Shown piece after piece: positions 1 to 16,265 of a DNA stretch of 16,404 bases. Source of the stretch: Anaerolineales bacterium. GTDB lineage: Bacteria; Chloroflexota; Anaerolineae; Anaerolineales; JABWBV01. The DNA lies in the NCBI GenBank assembly GCA_013359445.1, contig JABWBV010000082.1:1-16404 (forward strand). Direction: 5' to 3'. Position 1 is the first letter of the stretch, and each line of letters begins with the position of its first letter. The notes under the pieces were generated by a model. The model was not told where the DNA came from, made no database searches, and saw nothing but the letters and a program-made list of their open reading frames with translations. The position numbers and the translations under genes are program-made.

Positions 1-43
1 AGAATTCCCTCTTAGGAAATGATCGCTCAAAAAAGGAGAAAAA

Positions 44-2053
44 ATGCAAATCCTCATCACCCTCTTCATTCTGGGAGTTATCGGCCTCATTGTTTTATGG
101 GGCATCTTCCAATTCGTTCGGTTCATCCCGAACAACCGCATCGGCCTGGTCGAAAAGCGCTGGAGTGGTAAAGGCTCGGTCAAAAGCGGCCTGATCGCCT
201 TAAATGGCGAAGCTGGCTTCCAGCCCGAAGTCTTGCGCGGTGGTATTCATCTGTTGATGCCCTTTCAATATAAGGTTCACATGGCCCCGCTTGTCACCAT
301 CCCGCAAGGGAAACTGGGATACGTGTTTGCCCGCGACGGAAAACCCCTCGACCCCACGCAAGTGTTAGCCTCGAACCAAATGGCAAATGAATTTCAAGAC
401 GTACGCGTATTTTTGCAAAACGGCGGACAGCGCGGGCCGCAACGTCTCATCCTCCGGGAAGGCACGTATGCCATCAACCTGGTTCAGTTCGTCGTGATGA
501 CGGAAGAACGGGTCTATTCACTCCCCCTCAGCCGGGAAGAAGCCGAGACCATCCAAAAAATGGCCGAGGTCATCACCGAGCGAAAAGGGTTCCGCGGCGT
601 GGTGATCAAAGATACCGATGATTTCGTCGGCATTGTCACTGTTCACGATGGCCCATCCCTGCCCCAGGGCGAAATCATCGCCGCCCTCAAAGGGGACGAC
701 CCCGACGATCCGGCCACGTACCACAACAGTTTTCAGGACCCTGACCGGTTCCTGCTCTCCGGCGGGATGCGCGGACGCCAGTTACAGGTTCTTGTCGAAG
801 GCACATATTACATCAACCGCTTGTTTGCCACCGTCGAGATGATTCCCAAAACCATCATCGAAGTCGGGTACGTGGGCGTGGTCGTTTCCTACACTGGCGA
901 AACGGGCGCGGACCTCTCCGGCAAAGAGTATCGGCACGGTGAATTGGTCGAGCGCGGCAATCGTGGCGTGTGGAGCACCCCGCTCATGCCCGGCAAATAC
1001 GCCTTCAACACCTACGCCGGGAAAGTGGTCGCTGTGCCCACCACCAACATCATCCTCAAATGGATTCGCAGTGAAACTGGCTCCCACAAATTGGACGAAA
1101 ACCTGAGCGAAGTCACCCTGATCACCAAAGACGCCTTCGAGCCGTCTCTGCCGCTTTCAGTCGTCATTCACATTGACTATCAAAAAGCCCCGTTGGTCAT
1201 CCAGCGTTTTGGCGACATTAAAAAACTGGTCGAACAAACGCTCGACCCGATGGTCTCCGCCTACTTCAAAAACATCGGGCAAATCCGCACGTTGATCCAA
1301 CTGCTTCAGGAACGGAGCAACATTCAGCATATCGCCAACACCGAAATGCGAGAGAAGTTCAACCACTACAACCTGGAACTGGAAGAAGTTCTCATCGGCA
1401 CTCCGAAATCCCCCGCGGGTGACATGCAAATCGAAACCATTTTGACCCAGCTCCGCCAGCGCCAGGTCGCCGAAGAGCAGGTTGAAACCTACGGACGCCA
1501 GGAAAAAGCCGCCGTCAAAGAGCGCGAACTCCGCGAGGCGCAGGCCCGGGCCGAACAACAGCAAAAGATCACCGAATCGGAATTGAGCATTACCGTATTA
1601 ACCAACCAGGGTAAAGCCGATTACAACCGTGCCCTGCAACAAGCCGCCCAAATCCGCGCCCTCGCGGAAGCCGAGGCCGAACGCACTGCCCGCATCGGTA
1701 TCGCCCAGGCTATCGCCACCGAAGAACAGGTGCGTGCGTATGGCGGCCCACAATTCCAGGTCACCCAACAAGTGCTCAATCGGTTTGCAGAAGCCATTGA
1801 AACGGCCAAAGTGGATGTCGTCCCCCGCATCGTCGTGGGCAGTGGCGGTGGCGAAAATGGAAGCATGGGGAGCAACAGTTTGATCGAAGCCTTGCTCGCA
1901 ATGCTCCTCTCCGACAAACTGAGCGCCATGAGCGGCGATCCCCAAACCACCCCGCGAGACCCCGCCGTAGACAGCCTCCGCACACAAATTCGCCAAACCC
2001 TTCAACAATCCACCACCACCCCACCACCCACCCCCCAACCGGGACAAAAGTAG
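44..2053 (+). CDS. SPFH/band-7 flotillin-like membrane scaffold protein (YqiK/FloA-type); N-terminal TM helix, SPFH domain, Ala/Glu/Gln-rich coiled coil, Pro/Thr-rich C-terminal tail
   Basis: A 669-aa ORF. An AAGGAG Shine-Dalgarno sits 8 nt upstream of the ATG at 44. The hydrophobic N-terminus (LITLFILGVIGLIVLWGIF) is followed by an SPFH-like region and an EAEAERTARIGIAQAIATEEQ coiled coil typical of flotillins. A rho-independent terminator follows the gene. Confidence 0.85.
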   Translation: MQILITLFILGVIGLIVLWGIFQFVRFIPNNRIGLVEKRWSGKGSVKSGLIALNGEAGFQPEVLRGGIHLLMPFQYKVHMAPLVTIPQGKLGYVFARDGKPLDPTQVLASNQMANEFQDVRVFLQNGGQRGPQRLILREGTYAINLVQFVVMTEERVYSLPLSREEAETIQKMAEVITERKGFRGVVIKDTDDFVGIVTVHDGPSLPQGEIIAALKGDDPDDPATYHNSFQDPDRFLLSGGMRGRQLQVLVEGTYYINRLFATVEMIPKTIIEVGYVGVVVSYTGETGADLSGKEYRHGELVERGNRGVWSTPLMPGKYAFNTYAGKVVAVPTTNIILKWIRSETGSHKLDENLSEVTLITKDAFEPSLPLSVVIHIDYQKAPLVIQRFGDIKKLVEQTLDPMVSAYFKNIGQIRTLIQLLQERSNIQHIANTEMREKFNHYNLELEEVLIGTPKSPAGDMQIETILTQLRQRQVAEEQVETYGRQEKAAVKERELREAQARAEQQQKITESELSITVLTNQGKADYNRALQQAAQIRALAEAEAERTARIGIAQAIATEEQVRAYGGPQFQVTQQVLNRFAEAIETAKVDVVPRIVVGSGGGENGSMGSNSLIEALLAMLLSDKLSAMSGDPQTTPRDPAVDSLRTQIRQTLQQSTTTPPPTPQPGQK

Positions 2054-2179: not shown

Positions 2180-4192
2180 ATGCTCTACCTTCCCCTCCTT
2201 TTTCACTTTAACCAACACCTCAGCGAAATGGCCGCCCTCGCCAGTCAGGTATGCTACCGCGGCTTGTTACGCACCCTACGTGCCAACCCCCACACCAAAG
2301 CTAACCTACACATCTCCGGCACCCTGCTCACCGCCCTCAAATGGCTGGACCCCGAACCATTGGAACTGATCCGAGATGGATTGGCCGATGGACAATTTGA
2401 ACTCGTTGGCAGTACCTTTGCCCAAAACATCCCCTACGCCACCGACGATTGGGACAACGCCCATCAGATCGAACTGCACCGCCAGGTGCTGGAAGACACC
2501 TTCGGCGTCTCCCCCACCGCTTTTTGGAACGCCGAACGCTGTTGGCGACAATCCCTGGCCCCAATCATTGCCGCCGCAGGATACCGCACCATCACCCTCG
2601 AAGACCACATTCTGGAAGCGAGCGGAGGAAACGCCGCCCACATTTACCAAACCCGCGCGGGAGACCACACCCTCCAAATCGTGCGCGACGACGAAAAGCT
2701 CAAACACCTCTTCAACTTCGCCGCCTGGTTTGGCGATCACGAACCCATCCTCACCTACCTGACTGAGTGCCGCCCCCCCGTTGGCGAGGGTGTCCTGGCC
2801 TACGCCGAAGACGCCGAAGCGATGGGACTGTGGGGATATTTTCAAGGCGTCATCCCCCATCAAACCTGGGATCGACTAGATGCCCTGCTCAAAACCCTCG
2901 CGACCCGCCAAGACGCACGCCCCATCCTTTTTTCCGAAATCCCCGTCCCCTCACAAGAAATCACCCCCCTCGCCGATGGCGCCGCCACTTGGATGAACGC
3001 CTCCCTCACCCAACCCGGGCGCCCCTACCACGAAGACGGCTTCAAAGACTGGTTCGACTTCAACACCCACTCCCCCAAACTAGAAAAGTTTCGCCAATTT
3101 TTCACTGAAATCCGCCGCGAGCTTCAAGCCGCAGAAAAACAAACCGCCCAAATCGGCGCAAAAAAAATCTATCAACTCGCCCTCCACTGCTTCCTCACCC
3201 ACCAATACGAATTTGGGTGCATCGGCATTGGGGGGGATCAATTCCGGGGCTGGATGGGAGCCAAAGCCGCGCGGGTTCTTGCCTCATCCGTGTACATCGC
3301 CACTCTGGCCAAACGAAGCGGGGAGTCCCTCCAATTCACCATCGTGGACGACCTGAGCAAAGATGGCATCCGCGAATGGATGCACTTCCACGAAACCCAA
3401 CTGCTGATGGCCAGCCCCGTAGGGGGCCGTTTGTTATACTGGCTCAACCTGAAAAACGGACAAATGCTCGTTGGCAACCCCTCTGCCGTCGTCCGAGGCC
3501 CCTACCAAAACCACGCCGATCCGCCCCAGACTGTCGGCTACCCCAATTTTTGGCTTCCCGACGAAACGCCCTACACCCCCTACGATCAAACCGAACTGCC
3601 CCCCACCCGCCTCGAAAAATTTCTCCCGGAATGGGTATGGGAAGAGAACCCCGCCCCGGTCACCCTTGCCGTCCGCGAGATGCGCCAAGCCGGGGAACAA
3701 CACACCCTCCTGGCCCAACAAGGCGCGTTCTGCGATGAAATCTGGCTAGATGGCGAACAAGTCTTTACACGCACCACCCACATGAATGCCCAGGGTGCAC
3801 AGGAAGCCATTCGGTTTTACAAATCATTGGCCCCGTCAATCGGCTTTCGCAAAAAATACATTCTCACCCCCCATACAACCACGGTGACCTATACCTTTAC
3901 CAACACCAGTCCCCACCCCCACGCGATCCGCATGACCACCACCAGCGAACTCGCCCTGGACTACGCCGCCCTCCTGCAACACGGACGCGCCGCCCTGGAA
4001 TTTCTCCCCGACCAACCGGGGGTGGTGAACCCGCTCACAGGCGAAACCCTGGTTCTGATCTCCAAACGCCCAACGCAAGAAATCATCCGCACCCCGGCAC
4101 TTTTAGGGTTAATTGTCGGGTTGGGGTTCGAGTTTACCGTGCAACCTCATGAACCCATAAAATTTTCTATTCAGCTTGTTCGCACCCCCTAA
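2180..4192 (+). CDS. Glycoside hydrolase family 57-like protein (alpha-glucan-active enzyme family); atypical N-terminal motif
   Basis: A 670-aa ORF. The N-terminal LLFHFNQHL resembles the GH57 HxHQP region, and ELVGSTFAQNIPY resembles GH57 region II. WNAERCW matches the GH57 nucleophile motif W-x-x-E-R-x-W. AEDAEAMG resembles the acid/base region. No clear Shine-Dalgarno is present. Confidence 0.55.
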   Translation: MLYLPLLFHFNQHLSEMAALASQVCYRGLLRTLRANPHTKANLHISGTLLTALKWLDPEPLELIRDGLADGQFELVGSTFAQNIPYATDDWDNAHQIELHRQVLEDTFGVSPTAFWNAERCWRQSLAPIIAAAGYRTITLEDHILEASGGNAAHIYQTRAGDHTLQIVRDDEKLKHLFNFAAWFGDHEPILTYLTECRPPVGEGVLAYAEDAEAMGLWGYFQGVIPHQTWDRLDALLKTLATRQDARPILFSEIPVPSQEITPLADGAATWMNASLTQPGRPYHEDGFKDWFDFNTHSPKLEKFRQFFTEIRRELQAAEKQTAQIGAKKIYQLALHCFLTHQYEFGCIGIGGDQFRGWMGAKAARVLASSVYIATLAKRSGESLQFTIVDDLSKDGIREWMHFHETQLLMASPVGGRLLYWLNLKNGQMLVGNPSAVVRGPYQNHADPPQTVGYPNFWLPDETPYTPYDQTELPPTRLEKFLPEWVWEENPAPVTLAVREMRQAGEQHTLLAQQGAFCDEIWLDGEQVFTRTTHMNAQGAQEAIRFYKSLAPSIGFRKKYILTPHTTTVTYTFTNTSPHPHAIRMTTTSELALDYAALLQHGRAALEFLPDQPGVVNPLTGETLVLISKRPTQEIIRTPALLGLIVGLGFEFTVQPHEPIKFSIQLVRTP

Positions 4193-4265: not shown

Positions 4266-6872
4266 TCACTCACATCCGTAAAAAGTTCCCGCCACACCAT
4301 TCCAACAGACGTAATTGTTCCAGCGCCCGGAATTCCCGCCCAGCGCGTCTTTGATGGCCAGGGCCGCTCCATAGCCCCCGTTTTCCCACACGGTATCGTC
4401 CACCAACTCAAAGAGTTCGGCGTGAGAGGGCCGGTTCCCCGGACTGGTGTGGTAATCCCACCACATCCGCATCCAGTCCAACTCGTAGCCATAGTAATCA
4501 CAGACAAAGATCAGGCCGCCGGGATATTGCAGATGGCAGTATGGTTGATCATCGCCGATTTCCGCGTGATAGACGGTGTTGCTCCCGTCCCAGTAAACGA
4601 TGATCCCGTCCGGGTTCAGTTCGCTGACATCGTCGTGCGGATGATAGTTCCAGATATCCACCGCCACAAAGTGCCCCCACCCCTCCATCGAGGCACACGA
4701 ACCATATTCGACACCTTTCATCCCGTGCCCGGAACCATTGTAGGAGCAGTCGTTTTTATAATCAGCTACGGAAGCCAACAAACGGTGCCCGTATTCGTGC
4801 GCCAGGATGAATTTGCGCCGATATTGCCCGGAACTCATAAAGATTCCGGGTTGCCCGTACATATTCGTGGCACAGGATCCTTTGTCGGGATCATCCCCAC
4901 ATCCGGCTTTTTTCAGGTAATACGTGACGCCGTTCACGCCGCCGTTGAACCGTTCCTGGGCGGAATACGCCAGCATTCCCATCGAGTCGAAGTTCCACAT
5001 TTCCGGGCGGTAGATGTAATTGGGAAAAACGTTGTCAATCCACACAGCATAGTTCACGAGGTCCGAGGCGTCATTTGCCGCGGACGAAAGGTGACGCACG
5101 GTGATGTAGCCCCCCCCACTTTCAAGGCGCGCTTCGCCTTTCCAGGACGCATACACCCCAGCATTGGAAGTAGTGTTCACATAGGTACATCCATATCGGT
5201 TCAAATACCCATCGAATATTTTCACGCCGCTCTGCCAGAGGGACATTTTCGCACCGCGCGCCCGCCAACCGCTGTCTGAGGTACCGTAATCCTCGCCGAA
5301 GCCGTTATCGGTGGGGGCCACATACCACTCCAAACAGAAGGTGAAGGTGAACGTTGGCACGTCGGTTTCGGGCAATTGCACGAGGTTCAGACTCCCATCG
5401 CCGAGGCCCGCGCCGGGGGTGGGGAAGTCATCGCTGGTGCCAGGGTCCTCGGACTCTTCGATAATCACCGGGTCGCCGACTTCGTACATCACAAGGTCCG
5501 CCAACAGGGTGGGGTCTTCGCCAGAGGGGATAATTGCCTGGAGCATGGGGCCGATGGCGGCGTTGTGATCGAACTGGAGCGCGCTCGTCTGCCGGGCCAG
5601 ACCGAGTTCGTTGTACACCACAAGCTTGCCTTCAGGGTCGGTTTCTTCGGGGTGGAAGGCGAGGAAGGGGATTTCTATTTTGTAGAATTGTCCCGTTGCC
5701 AAATCCGTGACCATCACTTCGCCCATCACGCGGGCGGCTTCCCGGACTTTTTGCACGGCGGGGAGAAGTAACCCAATGAGAATCGGATCGGTTACGACTT
5801 CCCCGGCGAGGACGGTCATGGGTTCGCCTCGGTGTTCGGTTTGTTCGCCGCCGGAAAAGATCGTGAGCAGGTACTCGACTTGTTTATCGCTGTCGCTGTT
5901 ATTTGCAAAGGAAAGCAGAAGATTGTCGATATCGACCACCACACTGCTGTCATCGGTGGGGAGTTGCGGCCAGCCGAATTGCACTTCGGTGGGGATGCTT
6001 TCGTCCACGTGGGTGTCGTCATCGTCGGGGGGGGGAGGGGTTCCGCCACCGCCGCCCGCGACGAGGGGGAGAAAAACGGCGTGTTGTTCGTTCCAGCGAT
6101 AATCTTCGGTCTCGCCAAAGGTGTATCCTACCGCGGGGCCGGTGCCACTGTCGGAGGTAGCGGTTTGTTCGGCGACGGATAGCCGCATCCACAGGGGTTG
6201 ATCGGGATCGGGATTCCAGACGGTGAATACCGGGCTGACGAAGGAATACGTCCCCGGCCCTGGCAGGGTGAGGGACATGTTCTGCATCGCCCACTCCGAG
6301 ACGACCGCGGCAGTCCCCGGACAGGTTCCGGCGACCCCGCCCCAAGCCCCGCTCCGGTTCCAGTCCGCCCAAAGGTTGGCGTAGGCGACGACGCTGGTCG
6401 GGAAGGTGGCCGGAACGGTGACGGTAAAGCGCACGATCATTTCCTGGCAATGGGGCAGTTGGCGGGGGAGTTCCAGGCCGTTGTCTGCGCCGTCGTTGTT
6501 GGCGGCAAGGCCAAGGGTGCCCGTGATGATGAGGTTATTGCCGTCGGGGTCGGTGTCGATGCCGACGTCGGGCAATTCTTCGCCGCTGACGCCCGTGCCG
6601 AGGTAAAACGCGAGGGTGGTGTTATCGTGCCAGGGACCGTTGGCATCGAGGGTGGTGGGAAATTGCCCGGGGACCCCCGCATAGGCCTCGAACGCGGCCC
6701 CCGCGGAATTCGCGCTGTCGGGCGCGTCGCCGTAGTCGTGGGTGGGTGCGCCCCCACCGGGCAGGGTGAAGGGCAGTGGGGGATGATGCACCGGCGGTGG
6801 CGCGGCCGCGGTCAGGAAGGCGAACGCGATCAGCGTCACGCCCAGCCACGGGAGAAGTTGTTTGGGTTTCAT
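4266..6872 (-). CDS. Secreted zinc metallopeptidase (HEXXH zincin) with N-terminal GEVED-like domain and Gly/Pro/Asp linker
   Basis: The start is placed at the ATG at 6872 (MKPKQLLPWLGVTLIAFAFLTAAAP signal peptide) with a GGAGGT Shine-Dalgarno 5 nt upstream; the track's longer start at 6950 has no SD. The domain begins DYGDAP and ends GETEDY, the GEVED-family signature as recalled. A GGGGGTPPPPDDDD linker follows, and the C-terminal domain carries FILAHEYGHRL (HEXXH). Confidence 0.8.
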   Translation of the reverse strand: MKPKQLLPWLGVTLIAFAFLTAAAPPPVHHPPLPFTLPGGGAPTHDYGDAPDSANSAGAAFEAYAGVPGQFPTTLDANGPWHDNTTLAFYLGTGVSGEELPDVGIDTDPDGNNLIITGTLGLAANNDGADNGLELPRQLPHCQEMIVRFTVTVPATFPTSVVAYANLWADWNRSGAWGGVAGTCPGTAAVVSEWAMQNMSLTLPGPGTYSFVSPVFTVWNPDPDQPLWMRLSVAEQTATSDSGTGPAVGYTFGETEDYRWNEQHAVFLPLVAGGGGGTPPPPDDDDTHVDESIPTEVQFGWPQLPTDDSSVVVDIDNLLLSFANNSDSDKQVEYLLTIFSGGEQTEHRGEPMTVLAGEVVTDPILIGLLLPAVQKVREAARVMGEVMVTDLATGQFYKIEIPFLAFHPEETDPEGKLVVYNELGLARQTSALQFDHNAAIGPMLQAIIPSGEDPTLLADLVMYEVGDPVIIEESEDPGTSDDFPTPGAGLGDGSLNLVQLPETDVPTFTFTFCLEWYVAPTDNGFGEDYGTSDSGWRARGAKMSLWQSGVKIFDGYLNRYGCTYVNTTSNAGVYASWKGEARLESGGGYITVRHLSSAANDASDLVNYAVWIDNVFPNYIYRPEMWNFDSMGMLAYSAQERFNGGVNGVTYYLKKAGCGDDPDKGSCATNMYGQPGIFMSSGQYRRKFILAHEYGHRLLASVADYKNDCSYNGSGHGMKGVEYGSCASMEGWGHFVAVDIWNYHPHDDVSELNPDGIIVYWDGSNTVYHAEIGDDQPYCHLQYPGGLIFVCDYYGYELDWMRMWWDYHTSPGNRPSHAELFELVDDTVWENGGYGAALAIKDALGGNSGRWNNYVCWNGVAGTFYGCE

Positions 6873-6966
6873 AGCGACCTCCAAAATCTGGGGTGGGAGG
6901 TGAGCATCCCCTCTCACATCCCACCATAAGAAACTTGTAATTACGCACACGCAAAGCGTTAAGCTC

Positions 6967-7011
6967 GAAACAAGAATGACAGGAGGGACCTCCCCCTGTC
7001 ATTCTTGTTTT
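6967..7011 (-). terminator. Perfect 15-bp inverted repeat (hairpin H2) between the beta-helix protein gene and the metalloprotease gene; REP-like/terminator-like
   Basis: AACAAGAATGACAGG (6969-6983) pairs with CCTGTCATTCTTGTT (6995-7009); the 11-nt loop itself contains GGGA/TCCC. It lies 33 nt downstream of the stop of the 7044..9047 gene. The U-tract is weak (TTTTGG on the plus strand). It is sequence-related to the hairpin at 9111-9147. Confidence 0.45.
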
Positions 7012-7043
7012 GGAACTACACTTGGTGTGCCATAACCGATATT

Positions 7044-9047
7044 TTATTTGACCAAAAGCGGCAGGAATACTTGCAGGACGTATTCAAACGCCCCGATATC
7101 ACAGTTGCCCACGCGAGGATAGCCGCGCTGATCCACCTCGTTGACCACAGTGCCCGGATCACAATAGTAGCTATCGCCCGTGTCTACCGCCGCGCTGGTC
7201 GCGTCAAGCGCCCACGTCCACGTCGGGCCACCGTTGTTTTGCACCGCGCCGACTAATCCGGCGGGCGTACTGGGTTGGTCGCCTGCCGCGTTCAGGTTGC
7301 AGTCACTCCCTTCGGAGAGGTTGTGGCCGAGCGAGATCAGGTCGACCAGTGAGACGGTAGTGCAGGTGGCAAATGGGTGAGCGCCAAAAAGCGTGTTGAC
7401 CATCCAGACTTTGCCCAGGTTGTAGAGGGCACTGCCTTGCATCCCGTTTGCCTGATTAAGGGCGAGGGTGGTGTTGGTTGTGGTGACCAGTCCGGTGGCG
7501 GCAATGTACACGCCACCCCCAAGATCGGTGGCCATGTTTTCGGCCAGGGTGGAATTGATAAAATGCAGGCTATTATCTGTCCACAAGGCCCCCCCATCAT
7601 TTCCCGACGTGTTTAAGTGGAAAAGCGTGCCACGAATGAGGTTTTCATTGTTGGGAGATGAATTGCTCTTTTGGTAAATGGCTCCGCCGCTATCGCCCGC
7701 CGAATTTTCAGAAAAAGTTGAATCTTGCAATTGCAAGCGATAGTTGTGGATGTACGCGCCGCCACCAAAGCCTTCTGCCGTGTTGTGATGGAGACGCAAA
7801 CGTGTGCCTGTAAAAAATTGCGTGTACACCGCCCCGCCATCCAGTGCAGTGTTATCCAAAAAGGTCACATCGGTTCCCTCGAACCAGGTTAAAGCATACG
7901 CCGCTCCACCTTCCGTGGCTTGATTGCTTTGGTAGGTGCCCCCCTGCTGTTCGAGATAGGACACCGCCACCGCCCCGCCATGATCCCCCGCGGAATTGAG
8001 AGAAAAATTGGTTTCCACCAGGGAGAGCGTCCCCGAGCCTTGTGCGTAAATCCCCCCACCATCCGATCCGGCTGTGTTTTCCGAAAAAGTGGTCGCTATC
8101 ACAGTCAGGGCATCTGTCGTGAACGCATCGAAAGAATGCAAACCGCCCCCGCTTCCCGTCGTGGCTTCATTGACTTCGATCAAAGAATGGGAAATCGTAA
8201 TAGTTGCCGTTTGAGCAATCAGGCCTCCGCCGTCGCCGGCCGCCGTGTTGAGGGAAATCGTACTTGAATAGATTTCCGTCACCCCGCCTGCGATCCCGAT
8301 GCCCCCCCCACTGCCTGGGGTTGAATTGGCACGGACGAGTGCATTATTCAATTTTAGATAAGCCTCTGGCCCGGTGCTATAAATGCCACCTACGACTTCC
8401 ACCCCCTCATTCAATACCACCTGGGTGCCATCCAAAATCGCGCGCCCACCTAAACCACTAAAATTGAGGTTGTACAAGCCACCCCCGTACCCCGCGGTGC
8501 CATTGCGAAGCTCGCCGCCGTACATGGTAAAGGCCCCATCCTGATTGAGAACGATGCCCCCCACCGGCCCCGCGGCAAGGGTCACATCGCCATTGATCAG
8601 CGCCAAACCCGTTATTTCCACGGTCGCGTCGATCAGGTGCAGAACCCGATCGAGAAGCGCGGCATCAATGGTGGCGGTTCCGTTCTCTGCAACGACAAAT
8701 TGCACGTCGAGTTCCGCCGAATTATCGACAATATCCAAATCACCGGTGGCGGAGGCATCTTCGTCCATTCCAGCCAATGCCAGGGTGTAGGTTTCCCCGT
8801 TTGCAAGGGTGATCACGTCCGTTTCGGTGTCACTTCCGGCGGGGCACTCGCCCAGCACAATGCCGGAGACGGTGTTCGTGTTGGCAGAGATGATGGCTTC
8901 GCGCAACGAACAAACGCCATCTATCCCGCTCACCACATCCACAGCAGTGGTTACGGTGAGGGCGGCGGCTCGGACGGGACGCGCTAGCAATGCCCCGAGC
9001 GCCATAACAGCCAGCAACGATGAAAGTGCAAAACGTTTGAACAACAT
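7044..9047 (-). CDS. Secreted right-handed parallel beta-helix (Pmp-like repeat) protein with N-terminal CSLREA domain and C-terminal choice-of-anchor Q domain
   Basis: A 667-aa ORF with an AAGGAG Shine-Dalgarno 8 nt upstream of the ATG at 9047. The signal peptide is MLFKRFALSSLLAVMALGALLARPVRAAA. The literal CSLREAI motif is present. Many GGG(I/L/V)Y/GGA(I/V/L) beta-helix repeats follow. The C-terminus DQRGYPRVGNCDIGAFE matches the choice-of-anchor Q signature. Confidence 0.85.
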   Translation of the reverse strand: MLFKRFALSSLLAVMALGALLARPVRAAALTVTTAVDVVSGIDGVCSLREAIISANTNTVSGIVLGECPAGSDTETDVITLANGETYTLALAGMDEDASATGDLDIVDNSAELDVQFVVAENGTATIDAALLDRVLHLIDATVEITGLALINGDVTLAAGPVGGIVLNQDGAFTMYGGELRNGTAGYGGGLYNLNFSGLGGRAILDGTQVVLNEGVEVVGGIYSTGPEAYLKLNNALVRANSTPGSGGGIGIAGGVTEIYSSTISLNTAAGDGGGLIAQTATITISHSLIEVNEATTGSGGGLHSFDAFTTDALTVIATTFSENTAGSDGGGIYAQGSGTLSLVETNFSLNSAGDHGGAVAVSYLEQQGGTYQSNQATEGGAAYALTWFEGTDVTFLDNTALDGGAVYTQFFTGTRLRLHHNTAEGFGGGAYIHNYRLQLQDSTFSENSAGDSGGAIYQKSNSSPNNENLIRGTLFHLNTSGNDGGALWTDNSLHFINSTLAENMATDLGGGVYIAATGLVTTTNTTLALNQANGMQGSALYNLGKVWMVNTLFGAHPFATCTTVSLVDLISLGHNLSEGSDCNLNAAGDQPSTPAGLVGAVQNNGGPTWTWALDATSAAVDTGDSYYCDPGTVVNEVDQRGYPRVGNCDIGAFEYVLQVFLPLLVK

Positions 9048-9105
9048 AAAAACAAACTCCTTATGATCAGTTTTTAGGAATTACTCACCAAGAGAGGAAA
9101 TTTCA

Positions 9106-9151
9106 GAAAAAGGATGTCAGGGGAATGCACATCTCCCCTGACATCCTTTTT
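9106..9151. terminator. Perfect 14-bp palindromic hairpin (H1) flanked by an A-run and a T-run; bidirectional terminator-like, immediately 3' of small gene A
   Basis: AAAA (9107-9110), then AGGATGTCAGGGGA (9111-9124), loop ATGCACATC, then TCCCCTGACATCCT (9134-9147), then TTTT (9148-9151). It abuts the stop codon of the small gene at 9151-9153 and lies upstream of the 9047 start of the beta-helix gene. Confidence 0.65.
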
Positions 9152-9381
9152 CAAGGTTTACCCCTCTGTGCGGGAGTAATTACGTTAATTTTTTCCGTCT
9201 CTTCTGAGCCGGACGTTTGTTGATGCAAAAACAAAAATAACCGTTCCAGGTCTTCAAAATGCCATTCTTCCCCGGTCAAGACGTGGCGCGCCGTGGCCCG
9301 CCAGGGTGCGTCTTCCGCGGAACGCCACAAGCGGACGAGATAGGATTGATACATGGAGGAAGAAAGATTTCTTTCGGACAT
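9151..9381 (-). CDS. Small Trp/charged-rich conserved hypothetical protein, paralog A (76 aa)
   Basis: The start is ATG 9381 (MSERNLSSSMYQSYLVRLWR...) with a GGGAG Shine-Dalgarno 6 nt upstream; the track's start at 9393 is 4 codons longer. A paralog lies at 13282-13473 with the identical core EEWHFEDLERLFLFLH. That 16-aa identical block carries 7 synonymous and 0 nonsynonymous nucleotide differences, indicating purifying selection on this frame. The opposite-strand ORF 9259..9474 is not conserved in copy B. Confidence 0.7.
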   Translation of the reverse strand: MSERNLSSSMYQSYLVRLWRSAEDAPWRATARHVLTGEEWHFEDLERLFLFLHQQTSGSEETEKINVITPAQRGKP

Positions 9382-9385
9382 GGAG
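9205..9385. repeat. Copy A of an approximately 180-bp duplicated segment (direct repeat, about 75-80% identity, ungapped) carrying the small-protein gene
   Basis: It aligns without gaps to 13300-13480 at a constant offset of 4095 bp. For example, tgcaaaaacaaaaa[t/c]aaccg[t/c]tcca... and gcggacgagataggattgata occur in both copies. Confidence 0.7.
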
Positions 9386-9490
9386 ACTCCCATCTTACAA
9401 AATCCCCGTCACAAAAACGTAGCAAGCCCCCGCGCGTCCGCCTTCCCCGCCCGTTTCGAGAAGGAGCAGGGTAGTACTTGCGCGCTAGTT

Positions 9491-9496
9491 TATAAT
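9491..9496 (+). promoter_or_regulatory. Consensus -10 hexamer TATAAT placed 6 nt upstream of the DinB-like ATG; possible leaderless transcript
   Basis: TATAAT at 9491-9496 is followed by 6 nt (TTCAGC) and the ATG at 9503. No Shine-Dalgarno is present and no good -35 was found. Confidence 0.3.
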
Positions 9497-9502
9497 TTCA
9501 GC

Positions 9503-10021
9503 ATGAAAAAAACCATTTCTACCGAACCCACTCCAGAAAATATTCAGCACATTCTGCACATCCTTGCGGAAGTTCCAGCACACCTGGACAGACTCCGGCA
9601 AGGCATGGACGAACAGACTCTGAGAGAACCGCTGGCCCCGGACGAACGATCCTTCCATCAAATTCTAGCCCACCTCATCCACTGTGAAGCCCGCACCTTT
9701 GAAACGATCACCCTGGCCCTGCTCACTCATGAACCAGTCCTTTTCCCCATTCACCCGGAACGCGATTTCGGAAAGTTGTTCCCCTTCGAGCACCAACCCT
9801 TCTCCGATTTACTCGCCTACTTCAAACTCCGCCGCGCGGTGCTGTTGCCCGTGCTCAGTGGGCTGAACGAGAAAAAGTGGGCACGCGTGGTCCAGCAAGC
9901 AGGCAAACAACGGAAGGAGTCGGTGTACTGGCAAGCGCGCGTCCTCGCCCTGCACGAATGGGAACACGTGGAAGAGATCACCAAAAAGTTAGGGAGCGCC
10001 CCGTCCGTACTGAATCGGTAG
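9503..10021 (+). CDS. DinB/YfiT-like (DinB_2 superfamily) putative metal-dependent four-helix-bundle protein
   Basis: The start is placed at ATG 9503 (MKKTISTEP...); the longer track ORF from 9353 would overlap small gene A and lacks support. His-rich motifs are HQILAHLIHCE and the C-terminal LHEWEH (HxxxH), typical of the DinB_2 His triad. The protein is 172 aa. Confidence 0.65.
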   Translation: MKKTISTEPTPENIQHILHILAEVPAHLDRLRQGMDEQTLREPLAPDERSFHQILAHLIHCEARTFETITLALLTHEPVLFPIHPERDFGKLFPFEHQPFSDLLAYFKLRRAVLLPVLSGLNEKKWARVVQQAGKQRKESVYWQARVLALHEWEHVEEITKKLGSAPSVLNR

Positions 10022-10067: not shown

Positions 10068-13000
10068 ATGCCTGCCCCGCGCCTCGCGCTCACCCTCTTC
10101 GGGCCGTTTGAAGCCCTGGTCAACGCCCAGCCCCTCGCTTTTGCCACCGATAAAATCCGTGCGCTCCTCGCCTACCTCGCCCTCGAACCGGACAAACCCC
10201 ACCGCCGCGAAACCCTCGCCGCCCTGCTCTGGCCCGATTATCCCGACGAGACCGCGCTCCGCAACCTGCGCCAATCGGTGTACCGGCTCCGCCAAACGCT
10301 GGCCGACGCCGATCCCGACCTGCCCGCCCGCCTGATCACCCAAACCCGCCCAACCATCACTCTGCACGCCGCCGCGCTGACCACGGACACCGCCCGGTTT
10401 ACCGCCCTCGTGCAGGAGAGCCAAATTGCGCCTGATCCGCGCCCCCCTTTGACCGAATTGACCGCTCTCTACCGGGGCGAACTGCTGAAAGGGTTCGCCT
10501 TGTCCGACGCCTACGCCTTCGACGAATGGTTGAGCATCCAGCGCGAAATTTTCCACCAGCAAACGCTCGACGCCTTCACTCGGCTGATGTCGCGTCAGGA
10601 AAACGACCCCGACGCCCTGCTAACCACCGCGCCGCGCCTGCTGGCCCTGGCCCCCTGGCACGAAGAAACCCACCGCCAGATCATGCGCGCCCACTTGCAA
10701 AAAGGCAACCGCACGCAAGCCCTTGCCCAATACCAGACTCTCCGCACGACCCTGCTCCGCGACCTGGGCGTAGAACCCGCCCCCGCTACCACAGCCCTGC
10801 TCGCCCGCATTCAAACCGAAGCGCCTTACCCCGAAAACGCTCAAACCGCACCCATTCCCCCCCGCCCGACCCTGCGGAACTTCCCCGCGCCGCTCACCCC
10901 CCTCATCGGACGCAAAGCCGAACTGGACGCGCTCACTCAGATGCTGTCCGACCCCGCTTGCCGTCTGGTCACGCTGATCGGGCCGGGCGGGATGGGGAAA
11001 ACGCGTCTCGCGACCGAAACCGCGCGCCGCCTGTCGGCCCAGCCTCATCGGTTCACGGATGGGTTGTACTTCGTGCCGCTCACCCAACTCGAACAGGGGG
11101 AGTTGCTCCTCGCCACGGTGGCGCAAAACCTGGGCCTTACGCTTTCCGCCACCGCCGAGCCTCGCCGAGAACTCTTCCAGTATCTGCAAAGCCACCCCTC
11201 CCTGCTTCTCCTCGACAATTTTGAGCATCTCCTGCCCGACGCCGCGCCCATGCTGAGTGAACTTCTCGCCGCCGCGCCGGAGACCACGCTGTTGGTGACC
11301 TCCCGCGACCCGCTTGCCATTCAGGGCGAGTGGCTTTATCCGCTCGAAGGGCTGTCTTATCTTCCCGACCCGCGTGAAACTGACGCCCCGCTCGAACGCC
11401 CCGCCCCGCAACTGTTCATCCAAACTGCCCGCCGATACCGCCCGTCATTCGATCCCCCGGCCCACGCGGAATCCATCCTGGCGATCTGCCGCCTGACCGA
11501 TGGCTTGCCCCTTGCCCTCGAAATGGCCGCCGCGTGGATGCGCGCGTATTCCACCCAAGAAATCGCCGAACGCATTACCCAAAGCCTAGATTTTCTCACC
11601 AACCCCTATCGGGACGCGCCCGCCCGACAACGGAGCCTGCGCGCGATTTTCACTTCGACGTGGGAACAGCTCGCGCCGGAACCCCGCGCGGTGCTCGCCG
11701 CCCTGTCGGTGTTCCGGGGCGGGTTCACCGTCGCCGCCGCGTTAAACGTCGCCCAGGCTGGGGTTCTCGATCTGGCCGTGCTGGTCGAAAAATCCTTCCT
11801 GCGCCGCGCTGAACACCGTTACGATTTGCATGAACTGGTGCGCCAGTTTGCCGCCGAAAAACTAGGGGAGATGGGCCACGCGCCGGTGATTTTTGCCCGC
11901 CATGCGAACTTTTATCTCGCCACCCTGGCCCAACAAGCCCCTGGCTTGAACGGGCCATCCCCGCAGGAGGCGTTGTCGGCAATGCGCCAGGAGTTGGACA
12001 ATGTGCGCCACGCGTGGGCCTGGGCGGTCGCGAGGGCGGAGGTGCGGTTGCTCGAAATGGGACTGGAGGGGTTGGTACAGTTTTTTATGTTGACAGGGAA
12101 CCTTGCGGAGGGGGAAAACGCGGTCAAAAAGGCCCGCGCCGCTGTGTCGGCCCTGCCCGCGGCCCCCACGCCACTTCAAAGTCAGTTAGAGAGTTCGCTG
12201 GCGTGGTTCCGCGTGGGGTTGGGGAATCATCTGGCCGCGTTAGAAAATATTCAGGCCGCGCTGTCCCTTGCGGGGCAACATCTCCCCAGCCGCGCCCGTG
12301 CCCTTTCGATTTACGGGTGGGCGTTGCAAACAACCGGGAAGTATGCCGAAGCGGAAACGGCGTTGGAAGAGGCGATTACCCTGTTTGACCAAATGGGCGA
12401 TCTGTTTCAAAAATCTTTTGCGCTGATTCGCCTGGGTGGGGTTTATTGGCGGAGGCGGGATTTTGAGAAGACGCGGATGTATTATCAACGCTCGTTGCAA
12501 ATCGAACAAACGCTGGGAAACAAGCGAGGGATGACGCGCGCGTTCGGCGGGCTGGGGTTGGTGTATTTAAATCTGGAAAAATACCCGGAGGCGCTGGAAG
12601 GGTTGGGGCGGGCGCTGGAATTGGATCGGGAATTGGGAAATCTGGCAGGGGTGTCGCGCCATTTGGGGAACATTGGCGCGGCGCACTTGATTTTGGGTCA
12701 GTTTGAGCAGGCGCGGGCGTGTTTTGAGGAGGCGGCGGAAATGGATGCCCGGGCGGGGAATAAAGTGACGCTGGGCATTTGGAAGGAGAACCTGGGGATG
12801 GTGTTTATGCATCTCCAGCAGACGGATAAGGCGCGGCAGTGTTTTGATGCGTCCATTGGGTTGTTTCGAGAGGCGGGCAATCGGTTTAACTTGCCGGAGC
12901 CGCTGTTGGGCAAGGCGGATTTGCTGTTGGCGCGGGAGGAAGATGATGAAGCAAAAACGCTGATCGAGGAGGGGGTGCGCCTTTCGGACGAACTCAACCG

Positions 13001-13274
13001 CAAGGATACGCAGACCCGTGGGCGGCTGTTGCTCGCTCGTTGGCTCGCCCGGACCGATCCTGCCACCGCCCGCCAACAGTTGGAGACGATGCTGGCCGCC
13101 CTCGGTGATTTGCCCGCCGAGGAGACCCGCGCGCAGATTTATTTCGAACTCTGGCGCACGGATGGGCGCGAGGAGGATGCGGGGCGCGCGTTGGACCTGT
13201 ATCGGCGATGTTTGGGGAGGGCGCAGAAGTTTGAGTATCGGGTGAGGGTGGAGGCGTTGGAGCGTAAAACGTAG
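10068..13274 (+). CDS. AfsR/SARP-family large transcriptional regulator: OmpR-type winged-helix DNA-binding domain + BTAD, NB-ARC/STAND P-loop NTPase, C-terminal TPR repeats
   Basis: A 1068-aa ORF. The N-terminus LTLFGPFEALVNAQPL...KIRALLAYLAL is SARP-like. The BTAD region reads YRGELLKGF...DEWL...RLLALAPWHEETHRQIMRAHLQKGNRTQALAQYQTLRTTLLRDLGVEP. Walker A is LIGPGGMGKTRLA and Walker B is LLLLDNFEHLL. TPR-like repeats run through the C-terminal 450 aa. Confidence 0.9.
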   Translation: MPAPRLALTLFGPFEALVNAQPLAFATDKIRALLAYLALEPDKPHRRETLAALLWPDYPDETALRNLRQSVYRLRQTLADADPDLPARLITQTRPTITLHAAALTTDTARFTALVQESQIAPDPRPPLTELTALYRGELLKGFALSDAYAFDEWLSIQREIFHQQTLDAFTRLMSRQENDPDALLTTAPRLLALAPWHEETHRQIMRAHLQKGNRTQALAQYQTLRTTLLRDLGVEPAPATTALLARIQTEAPYPENAQTAPIPPRPTLRNFPAPLTPLIGRKAELDALTQMLSDPACRLVTLIGPGGMGKTRLATETARRLSAQPHRFTDGLYFVPLTQLEQGELLLATVAQNLGLTLSATAEPRRELFQYLQSHPSLLLLDNFEHLLPDAAPMLSELLAAAPETTLLVTSRDPLAIQGEWLYPLEGLSYLPDPRETDAPLERPAPQLFIQTARRYRPSFDPPAHAESILAICRLTDGLPLALEMAAAWMRAYSTQEIAERITQSLDFLTNPYRDAPARQRSLRAIFTSTWEQLAPEPRAVLAALSVFRGGFTVAAALNVAQAGVLDLAVLVEKSFLRRAEHRYDLHELVRQFAAEKLGEMGHAPVIFARHANFYLATLAQQAPGLNGPSPQEALSAMRQELDNVRHAWAWAVARAEVRLLEMGLEGLVQFFMLTGNLAEGENAVKKARAAVSALPAAPTPLQSQLESSLAWFRVGLGNHLAALENIQAALSLAGQHLPSRARALSIYGWALQTTGKYAEAETALEEAITLFDQMGDLFQKSFALIRLGGVYWRRRDFEKTRMYYQRSLQIEQTLGNKRGMTRAFGGLGLVYLNLEKYPEALEGLGRALELDRELGNLAGVSRHLGNIGAAHLILGQFEQARACFEEAAEMDARAGNKVTLGIWKENLGMVFMHLQQTDKARQCFDASIGLFREAGNRFNLPEPLLGKADLLLAREEDDEAKTLIEEGVRLSDELNRKDTQTRGRLLLARWLARTDPATARQQLETMLAALGDLPAEETRAQIYFELWRTDGREEDAGRALDLYRRCLGRAQKFEYRVRVEALERKT

Positions 13275-13281
13275 AACCAGA

Positions 13282-13473
13282 TCAAGAATCCCCCCTCTCC
13301 TTTCCCCCCGTCCGCTCGTGCAAAAACAAAAACAACCGCTCCAAATCTTCAAAATGCCACTCCTCCCCGGTCAGCACGTGCCGGACTGTCGCCCGCCAGC
13401 ACACTTCTTCTGAAGGACGCCAAAGGCGGACGAGATAGGATTGATAGGTGGAGGAAGCGTGGAGAGGGGACAA
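13282..13473 (-). CDS. Small Trp/charged-rich conserved hypothetical protein, paralog B (63 aa; apparent TTG start)
   Basis: (L/M)SPLHASSTYQSYLVRLWRPSEEVCWRATVRHVLTGEEWHFEDLERLFLFLHERTGGKERGDS. It has no in-frame ATG. The TTG at 13473 has AAAGG 7 nt upstream, and the frame is open upstream only to 13552 with no other start codon. Its stop lies 7 bp from the regulator stop on the opposite strand. Confidence 0.55.
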   Translation of the reverse strand: MSPLHASSTYQSYLVRLWRPSEEVCWRATVRHVLTGEEWHFEDLERLFLFLHERTGGKERGDS

Positions 13474-13687: not shown

Positions 13688-15427
13688 CTACCGCCCTAAT
13701 GCCCAACCAAACCGGTCATTCATCTCGGAGTCATCGGGAATGTCTGTCGATTCCTGATACCAGATTTGATTATCCACGGCGGTTAACCCGCTCCCCGATC
13801 CATATATGACATGGAGCGCCCCCGCGTCTGTCTCCGTGACCGCGTTCACCAAAACATCCTCATACGGAGCGCCCACCACCAGGTCGGTGAACCCATCCCC
13901 GTTGTAATCTCCGGCGGTCAAGGTGTAGCCGAACAAATCGTCCACTTCCGGCGCCCCCGTCACCAGGCCTTGCGCCCAAAGGTCTTGTCCGTCCGTGGAG
14001 AGCGTGGAGCCATTGCTATACAGCACCTGCACAAATCCCTGGTTCAACTGATCCCCATCCTGGAAGGGCACACCCACCGCCAGATCATCCACCCCATCAC
14101 CGTTGAAGTCGGCGGCGATCAACGCCTGTCCAAGTCGGTCCAGCGTCTCTGGCGCCCCCAAAATCCCGTCCAACCCCTGATAAAGAATCATATCGTTCGC
14201 GCCGGACAGCCCTCCTCCAATCGCCGAGCCGAACAACACATGCACGGCCCCCGCGTCGGTTTCATCGCCCACGCCATTATTCACATCCTCACCGGGCACA
14301 CCCACCACGAGGTCACCGGCACCGTTTCCATCAAAATCGCCCGCGGCCAACACCGTGCCGAAGCTATCATGATCTTCCGGGTTCCCTTGCACGCTATTTT
14401 CACCCTGTCGCCAGGCCGTTTCGCCCAAGAGCGAGATACCCGCGTCACTGCCCTGGAACACCATCACCGCCCCGACATTATCCACCCCCAATATGTCGTA
14501 ACCGGGAATGCCCACCGCCAGATCATCGAACCCATCGCCATCGAAATCTTCCGAAGCTAGGGCCGCCCCGAAATAATCGCCACTCGCCGGTTCCAAATCT
14601 ACCGATTCCAACCCGTGGTGGAAAATGATGTCGTCCAAGGCTTGCAAACCATCCGCCGAGCCATAAATGACATTCACCGCGCCCATCTCGGTAATCCCGT
14701 CCGATTCCAGGTCTTCTTTGGACGAACCCACCGCCAAATCCGCGAATCCGTCCCCGTTGAAGTCGCCGCTGATGAGCGCTTCCCCAAACCGGTCGCCCTC
14801 CTCCGCAAGGCCTCCAATCCCGTTCAAACTCTGACCGAAGGATTGTGTCCCGTTGTCGGTCAAACCCGTGCCCGGATACCCATAAATGACATCCACCTGC
14901 CCGACGTTGGTCATTCCATCCCGCCCCTCGCCAGGGGAACTGACCGCCAGATCGCTGGTCCCGTCCCCGTTAAAGTCACCTATCGCGAGGGCGAACCCAA
15001 ACTGCTCGTCCGGCAGGCTGACCCCAAGGATATTTTCCTGCGTCCAGAACTGATTGTTCTCCGCGTTCAGGCCATCTGCCGTGCCGTACAGGATTTGAAT
15101 TGCACCATTATCCGCCACCAACCCGTTGCGGTCTTCGGTCGGAATCCCGATGGCGAGATCGGCGTACCCGTCCCCGTTGAAGTCCACCAACCCGTTCGGG
15201 TCAGCGGGCGAACAGTCCAGCGTCCCCCCGCCAATCGAAGCAGGGCTGTCGCTGGAAATCGGGTTCCCGGCTCGTATAACAAGCGGCAGGTAAACCTGAT
15301 AACAGGTCGTCCCCCCCGCTACTGCAGGAGCAGGAGCCGCAAATGATCTCCCGTTCATGACAAAGGCTATCGCGATGAACAGGAAGAGGCTGATAATTTT
15401 TATACCGTTGAAAATTTTGTTTACCAT
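13688..15427 (-). CDS. Secreted FG-GAP repeat (integrin-alpha-like beta-propeller) protein
   Basis: The start is ATG 15427 (MVNKIFNGIKIISLFLFIAIAFVMNGRSFA|AP signal peptide) with an AGGAGA Shine-Dalgarno 7 nt upstream; the track start at 15481 lacks an SD. At least 7 FG-GAP repeats are present, e.g. DFNGDGYADLAIG, GDFNGDGTSDLAV, GDFNGDGFADLAVG, EDFDGDGFDDLAVG, GDFDGNGAGDLVVG, ADFNGDGVDDLAVG and GDYNGDGFTDLVVG. Confidence 0.85.
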   Translation of the reverse strand: MVNKIFNGIKIISLFLFIAIAFVMNGRSFAAPAPAVAGGTTCYQVYLPLVIRAGNPISSDSPASIGGGTLDCSPADPNGLVDFNGDGYADLAIGIPTEDRNGLVADNGAIQILYGTADGLNAENNQFWTQENILGVSLPDEQFGFALAIGDFNGDGTSDLAVSSPGEGRDGMTNVGQVDVIYGYPGTGLTDNGTQSFGQSLNGIGGLAEEGDRFGEALISGDFNGDGFADLAVGSSKEDLESDGITEMGAVNVIYGSADGLQALDDIIFHHGLESVDLEPASGDYFGAALASEDFDGDGFDDLAVGIPGYDILGVDNVGAVMVFQGSDAGISLLGETAWRQGENSVQGNPEDHDSFGTVLAAGDFDGNGAGDLVVGVPGEDVNNGVGDETDAGAVHVLFGSAIGGGLSGANDMILYQGLDGILGAPETLDRLGQALIAADFNGDGVDDLAVGVPFQDGDQLNQGFVQVLYSNGSTLSTDGQDLWAQGLVTGAPEVDDLFGYTLTAGDYNGDGFTDLVVGAPYEDVLVNAVTETDAGALHVIYGSGSGLTAVDNQIWYQESTDIPDDSEMNDRFGWALGR

Positions 15428-15474
15428 GATGATTTCTCCTAAAAAAATGATGGATTGTTGTCGTAGCGCGGGGA

Positions 15475-15665
15475 CCTTCATCCCCCGGCGAGCTGAATCA
15501 GCACAGGAAGACCGCCAGCACCACGCGTGCCTCCCATTCCAGCCCCGCCCGGCGATAATGTCGCCAGGCTACAACACGATGCCCGTTCAAACGGGCTTTT
15601 CCAGCCGGATTCATCCGGCGTCGTTGGTAGCCGGGGGATTTATCCCCCGGCGAGCCAAATGAGCC
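15475..15665. promoter_or_regulatory. Intergenic region (globin-to-FG-GAP) with a thrice-repeated motif TCATCC(CCC)GGCG and embedded palindromes; candidate operator/promoter region
   Basis: R1 TCATCCCCCGGCGAGCTGAATCAGC (15478-15502) and R2 TTATCCCCCGGCGAGCCAAATGAGC (15640-15664) match at 21 of 25 positions. A partial third copy TTCATCCGGCG lies inside the palindrome CCGGATTCATCCGG (15606-15619). R2 overlaps the palindrome CCGGGGGAT-TT-ATCCCCCGG (15634-15653). Confidence 0.4.
15581..15600 (+). terminator. Small terminator-like hairpin with U-tract on the plus strand (GCCCG-TTCAAA-CGGGC-TTTT)
   Basis: A 5-bp GC stem followed by TTTT, oriented for a plus-strand transcript. No convincing plus-strand gene lies upstream, so its function is uncertain. 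Confidence 0.25.
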
Positions 15666-16086: not shown

Positions 16087-16265
16087 TTTTAGCTCCTTTT
16101 GATTTCACCGAAAGCCCTACGACGCTTTTCGTTGTAGCATCCTGAGCGGAGGCTTTGCGAAGTCGAAGGATGCGGTGTCATTCATTTCAATTTCCCCATC
16201 TTACGCCCCCACCGTCAGCGCCTCGTCGCGGGAACGTAGGCGGAAAGACAAAAAAACCTCGCTTT

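Follow-up and report, generated by a model that had tools for sequence, protein, structure and literature searches.

Palindromic hairpins around a beta-helix protein gene of an Anaerolineales bacterium as probable copies of a miniature inverted-repeat transposable element family

Two related hairpins flanking a beta-helix protein gene

The stretch of DNA analyzed here (hereafter, the window) makes up the whole of a 16,404-nt NCBI contig that belongs to a metagenome-assembled genome (MAG) labelled Anaerolineales bacterium (proteins NUM44723.1, NUM44724.1; locus tag HUU38_08440). On its minus strand, a gene encoding a beta-helix protein with Chlam_PMP repeats (the PMP gene; 7044-9047) is flanked by two palindromic hairpins, H1 and H2, which are the subject of the present analysis. 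H1 separates the PMP gene from a small conserved open reading frame (ORF; YQSYLVRLWR...GEEWHFEDLERLFLFLH) that precedes it on the same strand (9151-9381, with the start placed according to the orthologue in a sister strain) and whose 3' end enters the element surrounding H1. H2 lies between the PMP gene and the next minus-strand gene downstream, which encodes a GEVED-domain secreted protein (4266-6872) and probably starts at the ATG at 6872-6870, with a GGAGG ribosome-binding site before it. Searches of the window against Rfam at the gathering thresholds returned no family, and a tRNA scan returned no tRNA.

The apical hairpin of H1 (9111-9147) consists of the arms AGGATGTCAGGGGA (9111-9124) and TCCCCTGACATCCT (9134-9147) around a 9-nt loop, bordered by AAAAA and TTTTT; its perfect 14-bp stem grows to 20 bp in the predicted RNA fold through the addition of A-U pairs and one more pair at the loop end. 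In the apical hairpin of H2 (6969-7009), the arms AACAAGAATGACAGG (6969-6983) and CCTGTCATTCTTGTT (6995-7009) are separated by 11 nt, and the perfect 15-bp stem extends to 19-nt arms at 95% complementarity with a 5-nt loop. The coordinates and the perfect 14-15-bp inverted repeats given in the original prediction are confirmed. The placement of both hairpins immediately 3' of minus-strand genes is likewise correct: H1 starts 3 nt past the stop codon of the small ORF (9151-9153), 64 nt upstream of the PMP start, and H2 starts 35 nt past the PMP stop codon (7044-7046), ~100 nt upstream of the GEVED gene. Integron attC sites were considered and rejected, given that inspection of both strands of H1 and H2 revealed no RYYYAAC/GTTRRRY core sites and that the window contains no integrase.

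The stems of H1 and H2, taken alone, match at ~9/13 positions, which is weak evidence of kinship. The motif ATGWCAGG occurs four times in the window, against 0.68 expected and with 0/200 shuffles reaching four, and these occurrences are the four hairpin arms; this count is the weaker test because the two arms of one palindrome are not independent. When the upstream flanks are anchored on the hairpins, they match at 29/50 positions, compared to a null mean of 15.3 (standard deviation 2.4; p ~3e-4, with 7/20000 random window segments reaching 29/50, self-matches counted); the anchored downstream flanks match more weakly (22/50; p about 0.01). Moreover, GTAATTAC is found exactly 31 nt upstream of ATGWCAGG in both elements when H1 is read on the minus strand and H2 on the plus strand, and CTTGGTG occurs ~22 nt downstream of CCTGWCAT in the same orientations. 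The likeness between H1 and H2, as anticipated from the alignment of their arms, is real and extends well beyond the stems.

Copies, ends and target sites of the element

For comparison, several contigs carrying related DNA were available. Judging from its 100% identity to window positions 1-693, the Logan contig L162, which reaches 3.8 kb further left, comes from the same strain as the window. L161 and L003 represent a sister strain (assembly GCA_009612995.1) with 93-95% identical DNA, and L159, L160 and L158 are syntenic relatives that are increasingly distant in that order; the set also included the identical Logan contigs L001 and L002. Among the GTDB species representatives, no close relative of the window genome was found, the best match to the GH57 protein encoded in the window being only 42% identical.

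The elements around H1 and H2 belong to a set of nine copies that includes, in addition to these two, two copies in L162, three in L161, one in L003 and one in L158. An inverted-repeat scan of L161 revealed perfect palindromes at 423-476 (27-nt arms), 1771-1828 (28-nt arms) and 6314-6359, within copies that span positions 393-504, 1742-1855 (L161_I1) and 6280-6373, respectively. A hidden Markov model (HMM) built from four copies matched the last of these at 6293-6373 (E 3e-8) as well as the copy at L003 831-905 (E 9e-4). The same HMM also identified the copies at 2107-2217 (E 1e-10) and ~759-861 (E 5e-7) of L162, both in the 3.8 kb directly left of the window. The copy in L158 (L158_I3; 9670-9760) shares only the ends and the target duplication with the rest, its interior being different. 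The window strain accordingly carries four copies in 20.2 kb (window plus L162) and the sister strain four in 23.8 kb, a density of ~1 per 5-6 kb calculated from eight copies in ~44 kb across two strains and one neighbourhood. The original prediction that the hairpins represent a dispersed, lineage-specific family of palindromes, as opposed to independent terminators, turned on the existence of further genomic copies; the same genome indeed contains them, given the two additional copies in L162.

The copies are 91-114 nt long and have no ORF of their own; homology between them spans 100-114 nt, including the terminal inverted repeats (TIRs). Their common architecture consists of the TIR GTAACTACTCAG, ~20 nt, an A-tract, a G-rich stem, a loop, a C-rich stem, a T-tract, another ~20 nt and CTGAGTAGTTAC. 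[quoted passage not shown] Target-site duplications (TSDs) were assessed as the match between the 8 bp that flank each end of a copy. These flanks are identical for L161_I1 (AAAATTAA / AAAATTAA; 8/8) and L158_I3 (GAAAATTT / GAAAATTT; 8/8) and nearly so for L162_a (CTTAATTT / CCTAATTT; 7/8) and L161_I2 (GAAAAACT / GAAAAACC; 7/8). Furthermore, the L161_I1 copy is missing in L162, where the uninterrupted site reads GTTGAAAAATTTTGTTCAATCGCG, that is, an empty site. End-to-end folding is predicted for every copy (z scores between -8 and -10). A paired-TIR pattern has four matches in 88 kb of related DNA vs one in 1.1 Mb of unrelated loci, and GTAAYTACTC has five matches vs none in the same two sets. 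MITEs are 70-300-bp elements with TIRs (PMC3733652). With a short non-coding unit, TIRs, 8-bp TSDs in the four best copies, dispersed copies, and filled as well as empty sites, the elements described here are, on sequence grounds, a new family of MITEs that conforms in general type to those already known.

The H1 element (9077-9183, minus strand) is a 107-nt, end-to-end imperfect palindrome bounded by the TIRs GGAATTACTCAC (9077-9088, plus strand) and GTAATTACTCCC (9172-9183, minus-strand reading), and its RNA is predicted to fold into a single long hairpin (-55.1 kcal/mol, z -9.0). The H2 element (6937-7036, plus strand), likewise an imperfect palindrome from end to end, 100 nt long, more decayed and in the orientation opposite to that of H1, is bounded by GTAATTACGCAC (6937-6948, plus strand) and by the degenerate TIR GTTATGGCACAC (7025-7036, minus-strand reading); its fold is predicted at -52.3 kcal/mol (z -9.9) for the minus strand and at -46.8 kcal/mol (z -8.3) for the plus strand. 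An HMM built from L161_I1, L161_I2 and L162_a only recovered H1 (E 5e-5) and H2 as the top two loci in 1.2 Mb. Because the two elements are mutual nearest relatives (63% identity over the whole element) and have the GTAATTAC TIR variant in common, they form a subfamily.

Comparison of gene order provides additional information on H1. Only 11 nt separate the small ORF from the PMP gene in L160, whereas the two genes have a 4-nt overlap in L158. The junction in L160 reads GGAAAAATTA|TCATAAGGAG, and exactly at this point the window has ~119 extra bases (9067-9185), followed by TCATAAGGAG...ATG. By this alignment, H1 is an insertion between two genes that adjoin or overlap in relatives; what it adds to the coding sequence of the small ORF is confined to the stop codon and the 11 codons before it (NVITPAQRGKP). 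Taken together, these observations make the membership of H1 and H2 in this MITE family very probable.

The simplest alternative to common descent is that H1 and H2 evolved independently as intrinsic terminators and resemble each other through chance and through the needs shared by all terminators, namely, a GC-rich stem and A/T tracts. Both hairpins do lie 3' of genes and combine a stem with a T-tract; the modest match of the stems would be expected under this explanation, and so would be the fact that the other terminators in the window have unrelated sequences. However, chance does not readily account for the anchored flanks, with GTAATTAC at identical spacing, or for the recovery of both H1 and H2 by an HMM built from other copies. 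Moreover, H1 interrupts genes that adjoin in relatives, the copies in the sister strain have TIRs, TSDs and an empty site, and copies also occur in divergent promoter regions, which have no need of a terminator. We therefore consider independent origin of the two hairpins highly improbable.

The original prediction had further likened the hairpins, as one of two options, to repetitive extragenic palindromes (REPs) or bacterial interspersed mosaic elements (BIMEs) and had named REP-associated tyrosine transposases (RAYTs) among the proteins that might bind their cores. REPs are 20-40-nt palindromes with a GTAG or CGTC tag that are linked to RAYTs, and GTAG-tagged REPs have been reported in Chloroflexi (PMC3733652). 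Like REPs and BIMEs, H1 and H2 are dispersed extragenic palindromes located downstream of genes, a position in which such repeats often occur and in which they may stabilize or terminate transcripts; furthermore, hairpin repeats with a GTAG tag are present in the window, although elsewhere, at 16291-16322 and 16373-16404. In contrast to REPs, the unit described here is 100-114 nt long, that is, ~3 times longer, and has 12-14-nt TIRs along with 8-bp target duplications, which is the signature of a MITE mobilized by a DDE transposase and not of REP/BIME. To our knowledge, IS200/IS605-type tyrosine transposases make no such target duplications. The stems of H1 and H2 are bordered by A and T tracts, with neither GTAG nor CGTC next to them, and the sole occurrences of GTAG are within the outer TIR of some copies, at a distance of ~40 nt from the stem; neither the window nor the other loci examined contain a RAYT gene. 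Thus, the REP/BIME label is not supported, and we regard spread by a RAYT as exceedingly improbable.

Several observations weigh against the assignment of H1 and H2 to a MITE family or limit its reach. The target-site duplications of the two window copies are poor (AGAAACTT / CGATATTT, 5/8, for H2; AGTTTTTA / GTTAATTT, 3/8, for H1) and one H2 TIR is degenerate, so that their status rests on homology to the better copies, and the match of H2 to the HMM built without H1 or H2 reaches only E 5e-3. A free local alignment of the flanks alone under strict scoring is marginal (p 0.04 and 0.29). No transposase gene was found in any locus examined, and the more distant relatives L169, L170 and L165-L168 carry no copies; any copy number beyond the ~44 kb is an extrapolation. 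Searches of viral contigs with the pattern CAGGRGN{5,13}CYCCTGWCATYCTT, which fits H1 and H2 too closely to serve as the signature of the family, gave 16 matches, approximately the expectation from uniform base composition if the collection comprises ~60 Gb (an estimate). In metagenome contigs, the same pattern gave at least 120 matches; the 120 matches listed are at chance level and mostly non-palindromic, a complementary left arm being present in three, none of which matches the window beyond the hairpin (one, L098, encodes a lysine-rich IleRS and looks unrelated). H1 and H2 are interpreted as old, decayed copies whose target-site duplications have decayed as well.

A separate candidate, an 18-mer that an unrelated metagenome contig (L127 1100-1160) has in common with the left arm of H1, was rejected as a probable coincidence; it belongs to another local repeat, built of CATTCCCCTGAC units, that follows a gene resembling those for inositol monophosphatase.

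With respect to the source of mobility, ISDge4 of Deinococcus geothermalis, an insertion sequence (IS) of the IS66 family, ISBst12 group, has the ends GTGACTACTCAGCA and GTAACTGCTCAGCA and generates an 8-bp direct repeat upon insertion (PMC12898284). The ends of the present family, GTAACTACTCAGCC and GTAACTGCTCAG, together with its 8-bp duplication, match ISDge4, the comparison being with the published ISDge4 ends only and not with a curated IS database; the common features are the terminal sequence GT(A/G)ACT(A/G)CTCAG(C) and the 8-bp direct repeat (PMC12898284). Unlike the family described here, which is 91-114 nt long and non-coding, ISDge4 and the ISBst12 group are ISs of the 1.5-kb class that code for a transposase of ~449 aa. 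Given the match of the ends, mobilization in trans by a DDE transposase of the ISBst12 group (IS66 family) appears most likely. A literature search found no paper linking ISBst12 to MITEs.

Among known bacterial MITEs, the Correia/NEMIS elements of Neisseria, ERIC/IRU of enterobacteria and RUP of pneumococcus resemble the present family in that they are ~100-150 nt long and non-coding, have TIRs and target-site duplications, fold end to end, insert in intergenic and intra-operon positions, vary in presence or absence between strains and occasionally extend ORFs (PMC3733652, PMC10969869). The resemblance noted here is one of features, sequence similarity not being expected; the family described here differs in its IS66/ISBst12-type TIRs with 8-bp duplication and in its centre, an A-tract/GC-stem/T-tract module in which the sequence of the stem varies but remains paired. 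Correia elements duplicate TA. SPRITE is another small interspersed repeat whose core resembles a Rho-independent terminator, although it comes from a different phylum and is likened here by description only (PMC10969869). A search of the literature for a MITE family in Chloroflexi found no paper, and a 2024 review of MITEs omits the phylum.

Stem conservation, the strain-variable segment and transcription

Across seven copies, the apical stem comprises 22 pairs, with 92% of the cells paired and changes on both sides in 12/22 pairs; 0/500 shuffles attain these values, and a displacement of the partner by 1-3 columns lowers the paired fraction to 54-67%. The pattern of substitutions indicates that pairing in the hairpin is maintained by compensatory change. 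The most variable stem triplet (TCA, ACA, CGT, AAA or GGT) is preceded by a conserved GATG and followed by a conserved GGGG. TGWCAGG, which had been proposed as the conserved core of the family and as a possible protein-binding site, lies partly in this most variable triplet and is common to H1 and H2 only. Other copies carry GATGCGTGGGGG, GATGAAAGGGGG or GTTGGGTGGAGG at this position, and therefore neither the core status of TGWCAGG nor, in all likelihood, a family-wide role in protein binding can be retained.

These data also bear on the possibility that the palindromes are operators for a dimeric DNA-binding protein that reads TGWCAGG half-sites. The over-representation of ATGWCAGG in the window, the location of H1 64 nt upstream of the PMP start codon and the presence of CCTGACAGG and CCTGTCAGG arms at L158 9685-9750 are all compatible with such a function. 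However, the four occurrences of ATGWCAGG are merely the arms of two hairpins, and other copies differ at these positions with a compensating change in the other arm, which argues for selection for pairing and not for a fixed recognition sequence. An operator function accordingly has very little to commend it in terms of probability.

The two copies L161_I1 and L161_I2 are 83% identical, and each of the four differences in their stems is mirrored in the other arm, so that both retain 27-28-nt perfect palindromes. Conceivably, although we consider this rather unlikely, the apical stem is actively kept symmetrical while its sequence turns over. If so, transposition or repair might pass through a single-stranded intermediate that folds back on itself, one arm serving as template for the other; for IS66-type MITEs, such a mechanism has not been described. 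Alternatively, a host factor could read the triplet that varies between GATG and GGGG as a specificity code.

A 2.3-kb segment of the window that consists of the H2 element, the PMP gene and the H1 element (6886-9192) differs between strains. In comparisons with L161 (9042-9124) and L159, it is replaced by 84 unrelated bases that join the small ORF to the GEVED gene. This absence from L161 and L159, together with a right breakpoint only 9 nt outside the outer end of H1 and the inverted arrangement of the two copies, with outward-facing TIRs, might suggest that H1 and H2 are the two ends of a composite transposon or cassette and that the PMP gene moved together with them. However, the PMP gene, while missing from the two closer strains, is found at the corresponding place in L160 and L158, flanked by the small ORF and the GEVED gene but by neither element, the left breakpoint lies 51 nt beyond H2, and the 8 bp flanking the putative composite match at 4/8 positions only; moreover, L161 has the 84 unrelated bases and not a clean empty site. 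For these reasons, a composite origin is very unlikely, and the PMP locus is better described as simply variable. Between the window and L160, the PMP gene is ~66-70% identical, compared to 90% for the neighbouring gene.

Returning to the MITE interpretation, we propose the following scenario. The element is a non-autonomous transposable MITE of ~100-115 nt, with the TIRs GTAAYTRCTCAG and an overall imperfectly palindromic sequence, at the centre of which an A-tract, a G-rich stem, a short loop, a C-rich stem and a T-tract follow one another. Copies insert in A/T-rich 8-bp targets, duplicating these, most likely through the action of an ISBst12-group DDE transposase supplied in trans. Once inserted and transcribed, the element is predicted to fold into a long hairpin, the apex of which resembles a bidirectional intrinsic terminator or a 3'-end stabilizer. 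H1 has inserted between the small ORF and the PMP gene, and H2 lies in the interval that separates the PMP gene from the gene downstream. In relatives, all three genes are closely packed on a single strand, and co-transcription is probable from this spacing and orientation. With an active core, H1 and H2 would split or attenuate this probable transcription unit or else stabilize upstream 3' ends. Effects on transcripts of this type (attenuation, uncoupling and 3'-end stabilization) have been discussed for other MITEs and for SPRITE (PMC10969869).

The case for transcription termination differs between the two hairpins. On the minus strand, the 14-bp GC-rich stem of H1 is followed by UUUUUCUGAAAUUU, which makes it a good candidate for an intrinsic terminator; H2 is the weaker candidate, with UUCUUGUUUCG partly inside the stem and an interrupted U-tract, a feature that weighs against termination. 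A simple terminator scan listed only the inner part of H2, having missed H1 because its loop exceeds 8 nt. Judged from these sequence features, termination or attenuation of transcription by H1 and H2 is about as probable as its absence. Three of the nine copies (L161_I1, L162_b and L158_I3) lie between divergently transcribed genes, so that the position of the copies is set by insertion in A/T-rich intergenic targets and not by a need for termination.

What at first sight are two terminators thus points to a MITE family that is active, or was so until recently, in an uncultured Anaerolineales lineage. Members of this family carry a ready-made, bidirectional, terminator-like hairpin and, in the case at hand, landed in a probable operon and changed the C-terminus of a small protein. 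Given these effects and the differences between strains with 93-95% identical DNA, the elements are a likely source of strain-level rewiring of transcription. For genome annotation, the implication is that hairpins followed by T-tracts may be mobile DNA and not locally evolved terminators.

Other genes and repeats of the window and its relatives

Outside the segment discussed above, the window encompasses, on the plus strand, an SPFH gene (44-2053), the GH57 gene (2180-4192), a DinB gene and a gene for a BTAD/NB-ARC/TPR regulator (10068-13274), and on the minus strand, a paralogue of the small ORF (13282-13473), a gene for an FG-GAP protein (13688-15481) and a globin gene (15673-16086). The longest ORF of the DinB gene (9353-10021, plus strand) overlaps the small minus-strand ORF. 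Given that the Pfam match begins only at residue 72 and that orthologues are 170-177 aa long, the true start is probably the ATG at 9503, directly after TATAAT. The GH57 gene (window 2180-4186 vs L161 4249-6261) is only 70% identical between the two strains within flanking DNA that is 92-95% identical, which suggests replacement of the allele by recombination.

The two paralogous small ORFs (9151-9381 and 13282-13473, both on the minus strand) share YQSYLVRLWR..WRA..RHVLTGEEWHFEDLERLFLFLH, belong to no Pfam family and sit near BTAD/NB-ARC/TPR regulator genes. A protein search with the small ORF returned nine proteins only, including the second copy from the window itself (P0006) and MAG-annotated Anaerolineales proteins; from the NCBI record of the window, the search returned the second copy and not the first. 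No H1-like hairpin follows the paralogue at 13282-13473, and duplication of a gene together with its terminator was rejected as a source of the hairpins.

Both ends of the window are associated with repeats. Position 1 (= L161 1902; L162 693) is 66 nt from the decayed MITE copy at L162 759-861, and the assembly break at the left end is consistent with being caused by this repeat; more generally, the elements may add to contig breaks in MAG assemblies. The right end (16255-16404) contains two repeat copies spaced 82 nt apart (units 16291-16322 and 16373-16404), each ending in GTAGTSCCGCACSCCAGTGCGGTCCGGCACTG, in which a hairpin follows the tag GTAG; the two resemble a genuine GTAG-type REP arranged in tandem. 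The contig terminates inside this repeat, and related copies are present in L003 and L005. The spacer between the globin and FG-GAP genes (15468-15664) contains a multi-hairpin repeat unit (GCCGGGGGAT..ATCCCCCGGC and others), of which L003 (6430-6860) has one additional ~190-nt copy, so that the copy number differs between the strains.

Further palindromes were encountered in the vicinity. Between the ribosome-binding site of the GEVED gene and the H2 element, an extra hairpin, GGTGGGAGGTGAGCATCCCCTCTCACATCCCACC, is located at 6892-6925 of the window, ~20 nt upstream of the start of this gene; it is missing in L161. A second family of long perfect palindromes is represented at L160 2823-2876 and L162 1936-1988 (CGGAATTTTGGAGGTGTTGGGGGATG.. 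and CCGAATTTTTGTAGGTGAAGGGGAT..); the palindrome in L160 includes ATTTTGGAGGT, a sequence identical to the ribosome-binding region of the next gene, so that the other arm of the palindrome could pair with this region. The sequence GGGGRATG..CATCYCCC is common to many hairpin apices of this lineage.

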